Shown: piece by piece, positions 22,677 to 31,524 of the stretch | How positions within the stretch are numbered: the first letter of the stretch is position 1 | How the letters are laid out: each line of letters begins with the position of its first letter | Assembly: GCA_001189195.1 (NCBI GenBank) | Contig: LFCQ01000003.1 | Span: 207,791-271,790 of the forward strand | Length of the DNA stretch: 64,000 bases | Direction: 5' to 3' | From: Parcubacteria bacterium C7867-007 | GTDB lineage: Bacteria; Patescibacteriota; Minisyncoccia; Phycocordibacterales; Phycocordibacteraceae | Position numbers and translations under genes: made by a program | Notes under the pieces: generated by a model | The model's database searches: none | Told to the model about the DNA's origin: nothing | The model's input: the letters and a program-made list of their open reading frames with translations, nothing else

Positions 22677-25502
22677 CTAGGTAAATAATTTAAGTAGATC
22701 GTCATACTCAGAAGGTTCTCCTTTACGCCATGCACCAGACCACAACTCCTGGATCACCTCTTCTAAGGTGGTGGCGAGCTGGGTACGTATATCGTCTGTG
22801 AGGGGTATGGGGTATTCAGTTACATCCTCTGGGGAAACCTGCACAATGCTGGCGTGTGTGGTGTTGTGTCCACCAGAACGAAGGAGAAGGTCGTAGAAGG
22901 CGAGCTGGCGAGCATGCTTTTCATCTTTGATATGAACATCGCTTGAAGTCTTGAAATCCACAATACACTCCCCTGCCGGCGTACTAAAGATTGCGTCCAC
23001 CTTTCCTTGGAGCTTAATGCTATGTCCGGCAATTTCCTTAGTGACAGAAAAGCCCTTCTCGATTGCAACCACTTCTTTCAGAGTGCCTTCGTGTGCAATG
23101 TATGAGGCAAGACTGTTCTGTGCATGCTCCACCACACGATTGTATGCAGCGTTACGCGGCAGGAGTGACTTCTTAAGGCACCGTGCCAGCGCTGCTTCGG
23201 CCTCCTCCTCACTCTTGGTTTCAAGATATGCAGCAATACCAGCATGAACCGCAATACCAATAGCCGTAGCGGGTGCTTCTGGTTCATGGAGACGAAGTAC
23301 ACGTCGAGCAAAGAAGGTACTTGGAGACTCAAGGTATTCATTCATTGCTGATGGTGAGAGACCATCCTTGGTGAGGAATTCCTGCACCAATTCACAGACT
23401 AGTTTTGACGCGTTAACGGAAGCATGCAGAACAGGAAGCGGATCATACGCAGGGGTGATGCTTGGTATAGCGGACGGGAGGAGGGCTGATGGTGGTGTTT
23501 CTCTTCCATCTGCAGATTCAGCAGCATAGGAAAATACCAGCTCATCCTTCGCTCGCGTGATAGCTACATAGAAAAGCTTTGTTATATCCTCCAAGCTTCG
23601 AGATTGATCCACGGGTGATGGAATCTTTGCCGGCATTCCTCCCTTTTCCCATTGTCGCGCGTTCATCCCAACCACAAAAACCTTTTTAAACTCCATACCC
23701 TTGGCCTTATGCGCGGTGATTACCGTTACCTTTCCTTCTGCGAAGGTGATGCTTGTTTTAACATTCTCAAGTCCATGTTCATTTGCTTGTATTAACGTGC
23801 GCACTACATCTGCAAATGATTGATTAGGATTGCGTGCTACCAGCTCTTCAATATGCATAAAGAGCTTTCGTACTAGAGTGATGTCTTCTAGGTGATCTGC
23901 GTGCGACAGAAGGAATGCTCGTGCACCTGAGTCTATTAGTAATTTAGAAAGAAGTGGAAGTGGTGCAGTGGTGAGAACAGCAGCACGTAGTGTTGCTAAT
24001 GCTTCAGCCACGTTGGGTGCACGGGATTCAAGTGCAAGCATCAGTTCATTGTCTCGGTTCTGGCGCAGGAGTTCTGCGCGCTCGGAAAGGGCGAGTGGCC
24101 ACCACGGAGCAAGTAGTGCTTCACGTACACTACTTACATCAAGGGGATCTGCAATTGCGCGCATAAGCGCAAGAATGCCTCGTAGCGTTGCCCGGCTGCT
24201 CAGCAGTACGTCACCAGCACGAAGTGTGGGTACACCACGTGCAGTGAGTATTTCTGCAAACTCATTTGCAGTACTATTGCGGGCTGCTATCACCGCAATC
24301 TCGTGAGGTTCTGTTCCCGCTGCGATAGCATCTGAAATAAGCTGTGCAATCTGATCACGTTCAGCAAGTGGATCAGGTGCTGCAAGTACTGATATGGTTG
24401 CTGATTCTTCTCTGCCAGCCAAGGCAAGGTGCGTGCCTGTAGCGCTTGGCACAGCCTGAATAAGCGTGTGTGCCTTGTCTAGAATGCCCTGACGTGAACG
24501 ATAGCTGGTGGTGAGTGAGATAACTTCTGTGCGTGGGTAGTGCTCCGTGAAAGTTTTGAAATGGGAACTGTCTGCACCCTGGAAACGATAGATTGCCTGC
24601 TTCTCATCACCCACAACGAAGATGTTTGGGTGCTCATCATATGCAAGTACATCCAAGAGCGCGTGCTGGAGTGCATTAGCATCTTGGTGTTCATCAGCAA
24701 GGACGTATTGGTACTGCTCCTGGATGGATGCCCGCAGTTCTGCGTCTTCACTAAGTCCATCCACAGCAATACGCAGCACATCGGCGAAGTCGTATACCTC
24801 ACGTTCCTCTTTAAGGGTTTCGTATGCTTCGATAAGGCGTGCAGCTTCATATACTTTCTCTAACCGATCAAGTTTCTTCTGTCCCTCTGGCTTTAGTTCT
24901 CCTTTGGCACCATGTTTGCTATCTCGTTGGTACTGTAGAGATTCATCAGTGCGAATTCGATCTGCTTCTGTACGTGCCCATGCACGATAGTCGTCCAGTG
25001 AGATACGCTCACGCAGCAAGTCGTTACGGAGCATCGCAAGATCCGTTAAATAGAAGTATGGAGACTTTGTAGTACGGAGCGCCACAAGATCTTCGTTCTC
25101 TAATACTTCACGCCATAGCAAGGTGCTCTCAACATCACCTGCCAGCCGTTTCCCTATTGCTTGTGGGAATGAGTCTTGATAGTTCTGAAGCAGGTGCTCT
25201 GCAAAGCCATGAAAGGTTGTTATAAAAACATCCCGTGCTGCCGTGTCTCCAATCATGCTCGCAAGACGTGTGCGTACCGTGCGTGCTGCGCTCTCGGTAA
25301 AGGTGAGGACGAGAATGTTGGTGGGGTTGGCCTGTGTTAAGCGAAGGATGTTCGCAATGCGCAGTGTGAGAATGTGGGTCTTGCCGGTACCCGGTCCAGC
25401 AATAACCAGTACTGGACCCTCTACCGTATCAACAGCCTTCTTCTGGGCTTCATTAAGAGTGCCGTATGCCTTTAGGAACATGCCCTGGTCCGTCTTATCC
25501 AT
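22677..25502 (-). CDS. UvrD/PcrA-type helicase fused to a C-terminal PD-(D/E)XK (RecB/Cas4-like) nuclease (AddA-like)
   Basis: Walker A GPGTGKTH, UvrD motifs (VLADEHQD, TTSYRS, VITAHKAKGMEFKKVFV), and a C-terminal ...CIVDFKTSSDVHIK...QLAFYDLLL nuclease core. Confidence 0.85.
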   Translation of the reverse strand: MDKTDQGMFLKAYGTLNEAQKKAVDTVEGPVLVIAGPGTGKTHILTLRIANILRLTQANPTNILVLTFTESAARTVRTRLASMIGDTAARDVFITTFHGFAEHLLQNYQDSFPQAIGKRLAGDVESTLLWREVLENEDLVALRTTKSPYFYLTDLAMLRNDLLRERISLDDYRAWARTEADRIRTDESLQYQRDSKHGAKGELKPEGQKKLDRLEKVYEAARLIEAYETLKEEREVYDFADVLRIAVDGLSEDAELRASIQEQYQYVLADEHQDANALQHALLDVLAYDEHPNIFVVGDEKQAIYRFQGADSSHFKTFTEHYPRTEVISLTTSYRSRQGILDKAHTLIQAVPSATGTHLALAGREESATISVLAAPDPLAERDQIAQLISDAIAAGTEPHEIAVIAARNSTANEFAEILTARGVPTLRAGDVLLSSRATLRGILALMRAIADPLDVSSVREALLAPWWPLALSERAELLRQNRDNELMLALESRAPNVAEALATLRAAVLTTAPLPLLSKLLIDSGARAFLLSHADHLEDITLVRKLFMHIEELVARNPNQSFADVVRTLIQANEHGLENVKTSITFAEGKVTVITAHKAKGMEFKKVFVVGMNARQWEKGGMPAKIPSPVDQSRSLEDITKLFYVAITRAKDELVFSYAAESADGRETPPSALLPSAIPSITPAYDPLPVLHASVNASKLVCELVQEFLTKDGLSPSAMNEYLESPSTFFARRVLRLHEPEAPATAIGIAVHAGIAAYLETKSEEEAEAALARCLKKSLLPRNAAYNRVVEHAQNSLASYIAHEGTLKEVVAIEKGFSVTKEIAGHSIKLQGKVDAIFSTPAGECIVDFKTSSDVHIKDEKHARQLAFYDLLLRSGGHNTTHASIVQVSPEDVTEYPIPLTDDIRTQLATTLEEVIQELWSGAWRKGEPSEYDDLLKLFT

Positions 25503-25896
25503 CCCTCCATTCTACCTGACCCGTATATGCTGCCTATCTCTTCATGAACCACCCTTCATGGTATGGTTTGTATCAGGAATAGGGAGGACCAGTGATGCGA
25601 ATTGCTACCCACACGTACCTTGTGATTCCGCGCCCTGCCCAGCGGATGGCGCACACTCGCAGGCTGGGGCACCGCGATTTCCGCTGGTTCCTCAAGCACA
25701 AACGGATCGGGCTCACAGGCCGTGGGCACATGTACCAGAGGACCTGCCAGCTCCGTGCTGAGCGTCGGCAGCGCTTCAAGACCATTCGACAGCAACGCCG
25801 GCAACGACAAGCTACCACCCTGCACAAGCATCAGTATCGCAGCTGACGTTCTGAGAATGCCCGGGAACCGCAGAAGCGGATCCCGGGCTTCTTCAT

Positions 25897-26484
25897 TTAC
25901 TTGAACCCACTTTTTAGTACGGAACGCAGTCGCTTGTATTCAGGTATGGTCTCTCCCACCAGGCTCCAGAACTTTGGGGAGTGATTGTGCTCCTTTGTGT
26001 GACAGAGCTCATGTACGACAAGGTAGTCTTGCTGTGCAGGGGGAAGATAGGCGATGCGGTAGTTGAATGATAGGTTACCCGCAGCAGAGCAGCTTCCCCA
26101 TCGCGTCTTTTGGTTACGAATGGAGATGCTTCCGTACGTAAATTTATAGTGTTCATTGAAATGACTGAGTCTTTCGGTACTGATTGCTCGAGCGATTGCC
26201 ACCGCTTGTTTGTATGCAGCACTTCCCATACGAGGCTTTGGTAGTAGGATTGGTTCTGCAATACCAAGCTTCCTTCGCTTCTGCTCTATCTTCTTGGTGC
26301 GTGCAATAAATGCTTCCTTTGTTTGAAGAATCCATGCCGTGCGCTGTTTTAGAAATGCTTCTGCAATATGTAGAGGCATACGAATGGGTTTGGTGAGGAG
26401 TACCCGTCCATCTGGAAATACATCAATCCGCAGGTGCTTTGCCCGTGCGGATTCTCTGATCTCATGCGTTACTGTTTGACCCAT
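25897..26484 (-). CDS. DUF45 / YgjP-like zinc metallopeptidase-fold hydrolase (M48/WLM-like)
   Basis: [16 protein letters not shown] contains the HExxH...NH zincin-like motif characteristic of DUF45. Confidence 0.7.
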
Positions 26485-26559
26485 ACTATATCTTTGCTAT
26501 CATACTCTTATTACGGCTTCGGCCTCCGAGAGTCTTCGCAGCAGTGCGAAGACTCGTGT

Positions 26560-26979
26560 TTATATTAGTGACACTAGCAAGGCTTGCTTAGTTTCTCGAA
26601 AGTCATCTTCAGAAATTGAACCTATTTTGCGTAGCAAGCGCTTGCTACTAATAACCCGTACTTGAGTAAGCTTCACCCACGAGAGTTTTCCACGAATCTG
26701 AACTGGATGATGGAACGAGTTCTCATGTTTTTTGCTAGTAACTGGCAGAACTAGCAGAGTAAGGGAATTATACACTTTTAAAACCAATACTGGTCTTTCA
26801 AACACACTATTCTTTCCATCAATTTCAGCTCCAATATTGAGTCCAAGTGCACACCACCAGACTTCGCGATTGTGTGCAAATATATGTACAGAACGTTTTT
26901 CGAGAAACTTTTTCTGCTGATTCCATGTATCAAAATCTTTCTCACTTTGCATGACCGCAGAAGTATACGCCATGCACAT
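26560..26979 (-). CDS. PemK/MazF-family toxin-like endoribonuclease (no cognate antitoxin gene seen)
   Basis: REVWWCALGLNIGAEIDGKNSVFERPVLVLKVYNSLTLLVLPVTSK...QIRGKLSWVKLTQVRVISSKRLLRKIGSISEDDFRETKQAL matches the MazF/NdoA pattern G-x-V-W-x-x-L-x-x-x-G-x-E-x-x-G-K...RP-V-L-V-L...L-P-x-T-S...IRTI-SK-RL...IG-LS. The start may be Met10 (26952). Confidence 0.6.
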   Translation of the reverse strand: MCMAYTSAVMQSEKDFDTWNQQKKFLEKRSVHIFAHNREVWWCALGLNIGAEIDGKNSVFERPVLVLKVYNSLTLLVLPVTSKKHENSFHHPVQIRGKLSWVKLTQVRVISSKRLLRKIGSISEDDFRETKQALLVSLI

Positions 26980-27344
26980 AAAATTAAACTGAATCTTTTA
27001 TGGAAAGGAAAAGGCCCGCGCATCTCGCGCGAGCCTCCTTTATTCCGCTGCCGCGGCGGTGCGGTCAGTCGTCCGGCGGGCTGCTGCCCTGCCGCGGCGT
27101 CACGACCCCCCGAAGCGGGGACTGCCGGGACTCGCGTCCCTTGTGCCCTTTCGAGCCCTTGCTGCCATTGCAGCGGCGGTTTTGGATTCGAGCCAACCTC
27201 TTCTCCCTAAGTACTTCCCTGAGCCCCATTTGCCCAGAAACTACAAGTTATAACATGAGGTATGGGAAGTCAAATATACTGAATGACTGACTCCCAAAGT
27301 ACGAACAATATCTTACGTCGATGTACTTCGTTTATACTCTCTAT

Positions 27345-27806
27345 ATGAAATCTGAATCCCGGTACTGGCTCGTTAAATCTGAGCCCTCCTCATACTCCAT
27401 TGATGATTTGAAGGTGGACAAAAAGACTTCTTGGACGGGTGTTCGTAACTATACAGCTCGAAACTTTATGCGTGATGCTATGAAGCAAGGTGATCCGGTT
27501 CTCTTCTATCATTCCAGCTGCCCTGTTCCGGGTGTGTATGGTATTGCGAAGGTTGTATCTAAATCATATCCAGACCCCACTCAGTTTGACCCCGCGTCTC
27601 CCTACTACGATCCGAAAGCAACTGAAGAGAAACCTATTTGGTATTTGGTTGATATTGGCTTTGTTGCAAAGCTAAAGGACCCCGTTACGTTAGACGCGAT
27701 GAAGAAGGACAAGAGATTGCAGAACATGACGTTGCTTCAGCGAGGAAATAGGTTGTCTGTGATGGAAGTTAGAGCTAATGAGTTTGTGGCAATTGAATCG
27801 TCTTAG
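27345..27806 (+). CDS. EVE-domain (PUA-like) protein
   Basis: RYWLVKSEPSSYSIDDL...WTGVRNYTARNFMRDAMKQGDPVLFYHSS...GVYGIAKVVS is the canonical EVE/THYN1 signature. Confidence 0.75.
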   Translation: MKSESRYWLVKSEPSSYSIDDLKVDKKTSWTGVRNYTARNFMRDAMKQGDPVLFYHSSCPVPGVYGIAKVVSKSYPDPTQFDPASPYYDPKATEEKPIWYLVDIGFVAKLKDPVTLDAMKKDKRLQNMTLLQRGNRLSVMEVRANEFVAIESS

Positions 27807-30959: not shown

Positions 30960-31072
30960 TCTACTCCAGAACGGAATTCACAGCACAAGTGTAAAAAGAT
31001 GGCCCCCGACGCGCAATGCGTCGGGGTGCCGTTGGGCGTCTCTTGCGAGACATTCTGGTCCGGAAGGTGGAC

Positions 31073-31261
31073 CTACTGGGTGGCGACCTGGTGGGTCACC
31101 GCGCCGACGCCGTTGTCCTGCTGCAGGCCGACCAGGGTGCGGGCGGCAGTGGCCGGCTGGCCGGTGTCGGTCGACGGAGCGGCGATGCTCTGCACGGTCG
31201 GGGCGCCGAAGGTGAGGGAGGAAACGAGCGCCATGTGGCGCGTGGTGCGATGGGAACTCAT
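31073..31261 (-). CDS. small high-GC ORF with signal-peptide-like N-terminus (hypothetical secreted peptide)
   Basis: MSSHRTTRHMALVSSLTFGAPTVQSIAAPSTDTGQPATAARTL...VATQ*. GC is ~65% versus ~50% nearby. It has its own terminator (CCCCGACGC-attgc-GCGTCGGGG + T-run, minus strand, ~31010-31045). Confidence 0.35.
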   Translation of the reverse strand: MSSHRTTRHMALVSSLTFGAPTVQSIAAPSTDTGQPATAARTLVGLQQDNGVGAVTHQVATQ

Positions 31262-31394
31262 GGGAACCTCGCTCGAAAGGACAGTTTTATCGAGGCGGAC
31301 GCCACGACTCACTCACTATACTCCTGTTCATGAAGACTGCAAGAACTTATACACAGATAAAGAAAAACGGCCTTTCGGCCGTCTTTCTAAGATA

Positions 31395-31524
31395 TCCTCG
31401 CTTATTTGCGGATTTCCCTCATCACTAGTAATACTATTCCTCAACGCAATAACCGTCAACATAATTGCGCCGGTGGAGGGACTTGAACCCTCGAGGATAT
31501 CTTGATGAGGGAAATCCTCGCAAA
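31395..31524. repeat. ~19-bp imperfect inverted repeat (ttgcgGAtttccctcatca / tgatgagggaaaTCCTcgcaa) flanking an ~88-bp core that contains a tRNA-like T-arm
   Basis: Arms are at 31395-31414 and 31503-31524; rc(right) = ttgcgAGGAtttccctcatca. Confidence 0.5.

Follow-up and report, generated by a model that had tools for sequence, protein, structure and literature searches.

A GC-rich block between the EVE and PemK genes

We analysed a 64,000-nucleotide stretch of contig LFCQ01000003.1 from Parcubacteria bacterium C7867-007 (hereafter the window, whose positions are used as coordinates throughout). The EVE and RpoD proteins encoded in the window match those of this genome exactly. The genomes of C7867-007 and its sister C7867-008 were described in Nelson and Stegen, 2015 (PMC4508563). 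Within the window, an EVE-domain gene on the plus strand and a PemK/MazF-family toxin gene on the minus strand are separated by a short block that stands out by its composition (Table 1). GC content is 0.68 at 27000–27199 as compared to about 0.37–0.42 in the flanks, and the 150-nt peak within 26980–27250 reaches 0.74 against a window mean of 0.49 (sd 0.049), as expected from the initial annotation, which had described a GC-rich block amid AT-rich flanks. The stems that it named, its gcggcggt direct repeat and its 54-aa minus-strand ORF are also all present in the sequence. Its description of the block as hairpin-dense does not point to a special feature, as this density is expected from the composition and the body without the terminator folds like the antisense strand. 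One of the named stems, CGCGC-atctc-GCGCG, forms the centre of an intrinsic terminator on the minus strand, and the direct repeats are short two-copy matches of 75–76% identity. What had been taken for a perfect Shine-Dalgarno (SD) and ATG pair (AAGGAGG at 27040–27034, ATG at 27023–27021) falls in the flank and loop of the terminator hairpin and is absent from a related lineage, L093.

As read from its sequence, the block is a compact, self-contained minus-strand transcription unit, bounded by a promoter and a terminator of its own, both predicted; transcription is predicted to start near 27240. We refer to this unit as the element. It is un-annotated in the NCBI records of either metagenome-assembled genome (MAG).

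Table 1. Coordinates of the element's predicted parts and of the two flanking genes, in window positions.
Feature	Coordinates	Strand	Details
EVE-domain gene	27333..27806	+	ATG 27345; -10 box TATACT 27333-27338, 6 nt before ATG
Element promoter (predicted)	27247..27273	-	-35 TTGACT 27273-27268, 15-nt spacer, extended -10 TGtTATAAC 27255-27247
5'-terminal hairpin (predicted)	27216..27240	-	UUUCUGGGC-AAAUGGG-GCUCAGGGA; AUG1 (27229-27227) in loop
SD-like motif	27202..27208	-	AGGGAGA, kept in all three DNA copies
ORF	27065..27229	-	54 codons from AUG1 (27229) or 43 from UUG (27196-27194); UGA 27067-27065
Stop-codon hairpin (predicted)	27048..27068	-	CUG-A-CCGC / GCGG-CAG
Intrinsic terminator (predicted)	27003..27038	-	GGCUCGCGC-GAGAU-GCGCGGGCC then UUUUCCUUUCC
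PemK/MazF-family toxin gene	26560..26973	-	PF02452 PemK_toxin, E = 1.1e-16; JGI gene call in L087

Distribution among relatives

Loci were compared by anchoring on neighbouring conserved proteins. The sister genome C7867-008 (L001, and the identical JGI contig L002) has the gene order rpoD, a 263-aa gene, EVE, ygjP and uvrD, with no PemK/MazF gene, and carries a copy of the element beside EVE (69% identity over 282 nt, E = 1e-17). In L093/L094/L095, EVE is again flanked by a copy, the third and a more divergent one, which precedes a Cys-rich 137-aa gene; nhmmer matched this copy over its full length (E = 5e-5), and the UvrD of this lineage is 82% identical. The element was absent from seven related lineages (L089, L090-92, L096, L097/98, L099, L100 and L003, the last with broken synteny), giving 3 of 10 lineages as carriers. 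Non-carriers have other cargo in the EVE–ygjP gap, including a Zeta toxin and large and small proteins of unknown function. In a UvrD tree of the clade, the three carriers fall on both sides of the deepest split, and on this phylogenetic placement the element is either old with repeated loss or exchanged at the hotspot.

Beyond these lineages, searches returned little. The element is missing from 80 metagenome loci that contain EVE relatives of no more than 64% identity, and contigs from the RpoD cluster either end short of the element or show a different context. Phage and plasmid collections gave no match in a distant blastn search. A scan of GTDB for an invariant 20-mer gave only the sister genome and one chance match (L005 3258–3277), which we set aside as unrelated: it is inside a Bacteroidetes MAG's gene for a KAP-type P-loop NTPase, in the Walker A region (GIEGKWGSGKTTF).

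The EVE–ygjP and ygjP–uvrD gaps (window 25900–27320; L001, L089–L100) are variable-cargo hotspots in this clade. Their cargo includes PemK, Zeta toxin, Cys-rich 105–137-aa proteins, 128–135-aa and 690–708-aa proteins, and a CsoSCA-like protein; PADLOC recognised none of the hotspot cargo tested. Restriction-modification genes adjoin rpoD or EVE in some relatives.

Conserved signals along the unit

The -35 and extended -10 hexamers of the element are invariant in the sister genome, and the spacer between them varies. The L093 counterpart of the -10 is TGcTTTAAT, likewise 17 nt from AUG1. A simple promoter scan did not list this promoter because its spacer is 15 nt. The 5' hairpin falls within a 27-nt block that is identical in the sister genome, and its seven core pairs are either kept in all three lineages or altered by one-sided changes, with one pair broken in L093.

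Downstream of the hairpin, the AGGGAGA motif is followed by a second in-frame start codon, which is UUG in the window, GUG in the sister and AUG in L093, and then by GCU. The spacer between motif and start is 5, 6 or 8 nt and variable in sequence, with both the motif and NUG-GCU kept, a pattern that appears typical of an SD–start pair. AUG1 lies in frame 30–33 nt 5' of this second start. Translation may in fact begin at the UUG preceded by the SD-like motif (27196) and not at AUG1 (27229). The product would be (MGLREVLREKR)LARIQNRRCNGSKGSKGHKGRESRQSPLRGVVTPRQGSSPPDD, with a pI of about 11.6.

The ORF ends in a conserved stop block, CCGGAC(GAC)UGA. The hairpin at the stop codon recurs in the sister as CUG-A-CCACA / UGUGG-CAG (G-C to A-U), and at an equivalent place in L093 as CGUCG / CGACG. 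The stop codon is 24–31 nt from the terminator stem in all three lineages. The terminator has the form of a rho-independent terminator, with a GC-rich stem of 9–13 bp followed by UUUUCCUUU; the sister and L093 retain it, although its stem has a different sequence there. In L093, a junction homologous to that between terminator and ygjP in the sister (GGTCTTTCCCTTTGATTTCAGGTACA; L093 3151–3180 and 3671–3724) sits after the Cys-rich cargo gene, and the terminator of the L093 element differs from this sister-type junction terminator. The position of the junction past the cargo, together with the different element terminator, suggests that the L093 cargo may have been inserted between the ORF and the ancestral terminator.

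Coding evidence and the encoded peptide

Of the roles offered by the initial annotation, a small basic peptide gene on the minus strand is the best supported. The AUG1 frame is the sole sense frame open in all three DNA copies, and its start and stop are kept in each. All indels within it are multiples of three, including the loss of a GAC codon inside the stop block. By composition, the chance of a shared open frame with in-frame indels is about 0.098 x 1/9 = 0.01, an optimistic figure given that the lineages are related; in 65% GC sequence, any one lineage would show an open 50-codon frame with a chance of 0.44–0.51, and the three are not independent of one another. An SD-like motif at 5–8 nt precedes UUG, GUG or AUG plus GCU in every copy. 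The ORF was also called independently by gene callers in JGI and Logan assemblies (P0001, P0130, P0132 and P0131), with P0130 and P0131 coming from two further assemblies and P0131 from a Logan contig of 2,925 nt. A word-index protein search with the three-peptide profile recovered P0001 and P0130 only. An exhaustive HMMER search of 1.84 billion representatives gave P0131 as the only further match (E = 2e-4); compared at the peptide level, P0131 shares 26 of 43 residues with the window peptide, with conservative replacements and the same MAR start position.

Support for the gene has to be qualified, because the peptide evolves almost neutrally and because the true start may be the UUG. Among the three DNA-supported copies, amino-acid identity is 33–38%. 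The pN/pS of the ORF is 0.69–0.87 as compared to 0.22–0.32 for EVE and YgjP, and its differences are spread evenly over codon positions (20/23/23) as against 47/36/100 for YgjP. In these three copies, neither pN/pS nor codon positions give a clear sign of purifying selection on the peptide sequence, and its exact sequence is weakly constrained; window and P0131 peptides look better conserved as a pair. The window ORF has an excess of GC at third positions (GC3 0.80, p about 0.03), which we discounted as coding evidence because the sister ORF does not share it.

The peptides are rich in G/S/P/T and K/R, have few hydrophobic residues and have pI values of 10.9–11.7. AF2/AlphaFold predicted an N-terminal helix at residues 3–20 and no fold for the rest. 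Pfam, NCBIfam and PADLOC returned no family match for the peptides.

RNA structure and RNA families

Rfam 15 gave no matches at gathering threshold across the whole window. At E up to 10 on 25300–27500, sub-threshold matches only were found (ctRNA, Leu_leader with 23 bits where 50 are required, and others), all aligned to the terminator hairpin alone. ARAGORN found no tRNA or tmRNA. Folding z-scores for the whole transcript were -1.9 (window), -3.5 (sister) and -2.7 (L093), and are driven by the terminator: without it, the body scores -1.1, -2.6 and -0.7, respectively, similar to the antisense strand and not more stable than shuffled versions. An RNAalifold consensus of the three sequences had an unfavourable covariation term (+2.9) and many broken pairs in mid-body. 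The structures recurring in all three lineages are the 5' hairpin, the post-stop hairpin and the terminator only, and these three sequences do not show the conserved, covarying structure of a riboswitch or structured leader.

Relation to the neighbouring genes

The PemK gene is cargo between the element's terminator and ygjP, and is absent from the sister genome. It starts just past the terminator in a TAATTT-N7-ATG arrangement, a palindromic hairpin (26530–26555) follows its stop codon, and no antitoxin-like ORF adjoins it. The proposal that the block is an RNA antitoxin or structured leader for this orphan toxin fared poorly. Type III systems have tandem direct repeats (units of about 34–36 nt) upstream of the toxin; TRF at a score of at least 30 found no array in 26400–27400, its sole match being 9 nt x 2 inside the PemK gene, and the ToxI-like repeats that had been suggested as a check reduce to short two-copy repeats. 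The downstream gene is of family PF02452 rather than a ToxN/AbiQ/CptN-family toxin, no Rfam family matched, and the body shows no conserved structure. RNA and toxin do not strictly co-occur either, as L001/L002 have the element without PemK and L093–L095 have it before the unrelated Cys-rich gene. For a type II antitoxin (MazE/PemI), no AbrB/SpoVT or RHH match was found in Pfam/NCBIfam at E up to 0.1–1, and such antitoxins are usually acidic, as opposed to the pI of 11.6 here. The distribution of the element across lineages refutes a dedicated link to MazF/PemK. Judged from these comparisons, the element is not a partner of the toxin, and nothing links it to mazF regulation. Its position immediately upstream of mazF, as described in the initial annotation, does not hold functionally, given a strong terminator in the roughly 90-nt gap between ORF and PemK and a sister genome that has the block without mazF.

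The EVE gene is divergent from the element and keeps its -10-N6-ATG geometry in all lineages examined (L001, L090, L093, L096 and L099). A shared regulatory region had been suggested for the block. This stands insofar as the element's promoter and a leaderless-type EVE promoter are predicted back to back, and fails for the GC-rich body, which would itself be transcribed and has no link to mazF. SD motifs are rare in this genome (4 of 33 and 7 of 44 long ORFs), and a TAnnnT box lies 5–8 nt before the ATG in 11 of 44 long ORFs versus 5.5% of all ATGs; the scarcity of SD motifs and the enrichment of TAnnnT before ATG suggest that leaderless mRNAs may be widespread. As most genes here have neither SD nor leader, the element's proposed initiation signals are atypical for the organism.

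The same geometry occurs at ygjP, as TACAGT-N6-ATG in the sister and TACACT-N6-ATG in L093. The ygjP start is 10–16 nt past the U-tract in the sister, and the PemK start 25–30 nt past it in the window. We had entertained forced read-through of the element into the sister's ygjP, and withdrew it because the -10-N6-ATG leaderless geometry is common in the genome and present at ygjP. The downstream gene has no constant functional class: the window has PemK in this place, the sister has ygjP, and L093 has a gene for a Cys-rich protein.

A 6-mer at the second start (27189–27194; GGCUCG, sister GGCUGA) has its complement in the outer part of the terminator's 3' arm (27013–27018; CGGGCC, sister UCGGUC). 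Both sides are changed in the sister, pairing is possible in all three lineages, and such complementary 6-mers number 1–2 per 200-nt body. An antiterminator formed by GGCUCG/CGGGCC was rejected on kinetic and thermodynamic grounds, and we do not take the pairing as evidence of a mechanism. This 6-bp contact with the 3' arm was the only one found, and no pairing partner for the 5' arm of the terminator was identified.

Interpretation and alternatives

Our best reading, to which we attach about even confidence, is that the block forms an autonomous gene of about 235 nt on the minus strand, confined to this clade and likely to encode a basic, largely disordered and fast-evolving peptide. Transcription would begin at the extended -10 promoter and yield a short RNA that opens with the conserved hairpin and carries the SD-like AGGGAGA, a start 5–8 nt further on, a frame of 40–54 codons, a small hairpin and the strong terminator. 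Translation of this RNA would give a very basic (pI about 11–12), Gly/Ser/Pro/Arg/Lys-rich peptide with at most one N-terminal helix and otherwise disordered. Its most plausible action would be electrostatic binding to nucleic acid or the ribosome, and the 5' hairpin would most plausibly serve mRNA stabilisation or translation gating. The terminator would end the unit and insulate whichever gene lies downstream (PemK here, ygjP in the sister, the Cys-rich gene in L093), as these genes appear to own leaderless-type promoters. The element would then be one of several interchangeable cargo items in the variable EVE–ygjP gap.

A non-coding or dual-function sRNA is a serious rival to the peptide gene, though on balance we consider it unlikely. 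Here, the transcript of about 235 nt would be the functional product, with the invariant 5' hairpin and its loop as the active part or seed and the open frame incidental to GC content. A promoter and terminator around a body of typical sRNA size would suit this, as would the strongest conservation being in the 27-nt 5' block rather than in the peptide, the even substitutions over codon positions with pN/pS near 1, the open frame being roughly a coin toss per lineage by composition, and an AUG1 that has no SD and misfits the genome's usual leaderless geometry. However, the frame has survived in three lineages with its start and stop intact and with indels that preserve it, which composition makes a rare outcome, the SD-like motif precedes NUG-GCU at proper and variable spacing, and a fourth peptide, P0131, differs by conservative replacements; moreover, the body has no Rfam match and no conserved structure or covariation beyond the terminal hairpins. 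The near neutrality of the ORF body could also be that of a functionless remnant of foreign high-GC DNA in a recombination hotspot, and the patchy occurrence in a variable-cargo gap fits this too, as do two other nearby GC-rich intergenic islands that are likewise lineage-restricted. We judge this decidedly improbable: the promoter hexamers, 5' block, SD-like motif, stop block and terminator are conserved against 42–52% difference at neighbouring third codon positions, the element spans the deepest UvrD split, and it has no similarity to phage or plasmid collections.

The remaining alternatives tie the element to the gene downstream. As a cis-acting 5' leader or attenuator, it would set read-through into ygjP-uvrD or PemK at the terminator by translation of a leader ORF. 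A reading frame that stays open despite a drifting peptide is what marks a regulatory leader ORF. The closeness of the next same-orientation gene to the U-tract, the constant distance from stop to terminator and the possible pairing of the second-start 6-mer with the terminator 3' arm, seen in each of the three lineages and altered on both sides in the sister, are all in keeping with it. However, the gene downstream changes from lineage to lineage, ygjP occurs in seven relatives that lack the element, both ygjP and PemK show a leaderless -10-N6/7-ATG arrangement of their own past the terminator, and the body lacks conserved aptamer-like structure. The terminator is also strong, with no credible competing structure involving its 5' arm; the 6-bp alternative engages the 3' arm instead and is too weak to displace the local stem. 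We therefore regard a leader as quite unlikely. A partnership with the orphan MazF/PemK toxin, whether as an RNA antitoxin resembling type III or as a small antitoxin protein, draws on the element lying directly upstream of PemK on the same strand with no other antitoxin candidate adjacent. It is extremely improbable, since C7867-008 has the element and lacks a PemK gene, L093 has it before an unrelated gene, there are no tandem repeats, the toxin is of a type II rather than ToxN/AbiQ family, the strongly basic peptide matches no MazE/PemI, AbrB or RHH domain, and a strong terminator separates the two genes.

Among known systems, the peptide gene that we favour most resembles lineage-specific microprotein genes, with which it shares a compact layout of own promoter, 5' UTR hairpin, SD-like motif, 40–54-codon ORF and terminator, as well as the lack of homologues outside a narrow clade; such genes are often missed by annotation pipelines. 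It differs from them in a nearly unconstrained peptide, a GC content 15–25 points above the genome average, and a hotspot location, in alternation with toxin genes and other cargo. A lead only is offered by small basic peptides that are hydrophilic or ribosome-associated, such as Sra/bS22, bL34 and the KGG-repeat stress proteins YciG/GsiB. They have in common with the element's peptide a length of 40–60 aa, a pI above 10, Gly/Lys/Ser/Arg-rich low complexity (GSKGSKGHKG in the element) and predicted disorder; no sequence relationship to any of them was seen in Pfam, NCBIfam or the exhaustive HMMER search. Type III toxin-antitoxin RNAs (ToxI/ToxN, AbiQ/antiQ, CptIN) likewise have structured, GC-rich-looking DNA upstream of a toxin with a terminator between, whereas the element has no tandem repeats, adjoins a PemK/MazF-family toxin and occurs without a toxin. 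With attenuators of the trpL/pyrL/tnaC type, it shares a short, poorly conserved ORF followed by a terminator and a same-strand gene, but it shows neither runs of regulatory codons nor an evident antiterminator using the terminator 5' arm, and its downstream gene is inconstant, with promoter-like boxes of its own.

If right, the favoured reading would give an uncultivated lineage of Parcubacteria a clade-specific small gene that annotation had missed, would leave an apparent orphan PemK toxin without an RNA partner at this position, and would be a small data point on CPR genomes gaining fast-evolving micro-genes and toxin cargo at the EVE/ygjP/uvrD hotspot. The finding is modest, an orphan small ORF gene whose function is inferred; it is not a new toxin-antitoxin RNA and opens no long-standing question.

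Other GC-rich islands nearby

Two further GC-rich islands lie close to the element, and the three share no similarity that would make them a repeat or MITE family. A broader idea, which we regard as a long shot, is that the element and perhaps the other two islands are GC-rich dual-function micro-genes of CPR cargo hotspots, in which ribosome occupancy of a translated ORF free to vary in sequence, the invariant 5' hairpin and the complementarity of start and terminator would together tune mRNA fate or the read-through into whichever cargo gene lies downstream, here that of a toxin.

The ygjP–uvrD island (25503–25896, peak GC 0.68) is absent in the sister, where the gap is 62 nt, and apart from 60 nt next to uvrD it has no counterpart in the other lineages. 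It contains an Arg-rich 84-aa plus-strand ORF (25592–25846), which was called as an 83-aa gene by JGI. The second island (30960–31400, minus strand, with the GC-rich part at 30960–31330 and peak GC 0.75) lies between dnaG and rpoC and has a counterpart in the sister at L001 7483–8200. It looks like a separate small gene, with a conserved promoter (TTGCAG-N16-TATAGT), an ORF (31312..31073, minus strand) and a terminator at about 31030–31003, and has strong 3-nt GC periodicity, matched in 0 of 2000 shuffles. In the sister, its promoter and small ORF are present twice in tandem, and the C-terminal peptide is conserved there (...APSTDxGQ...D.G.GA.THQV.TQ*).
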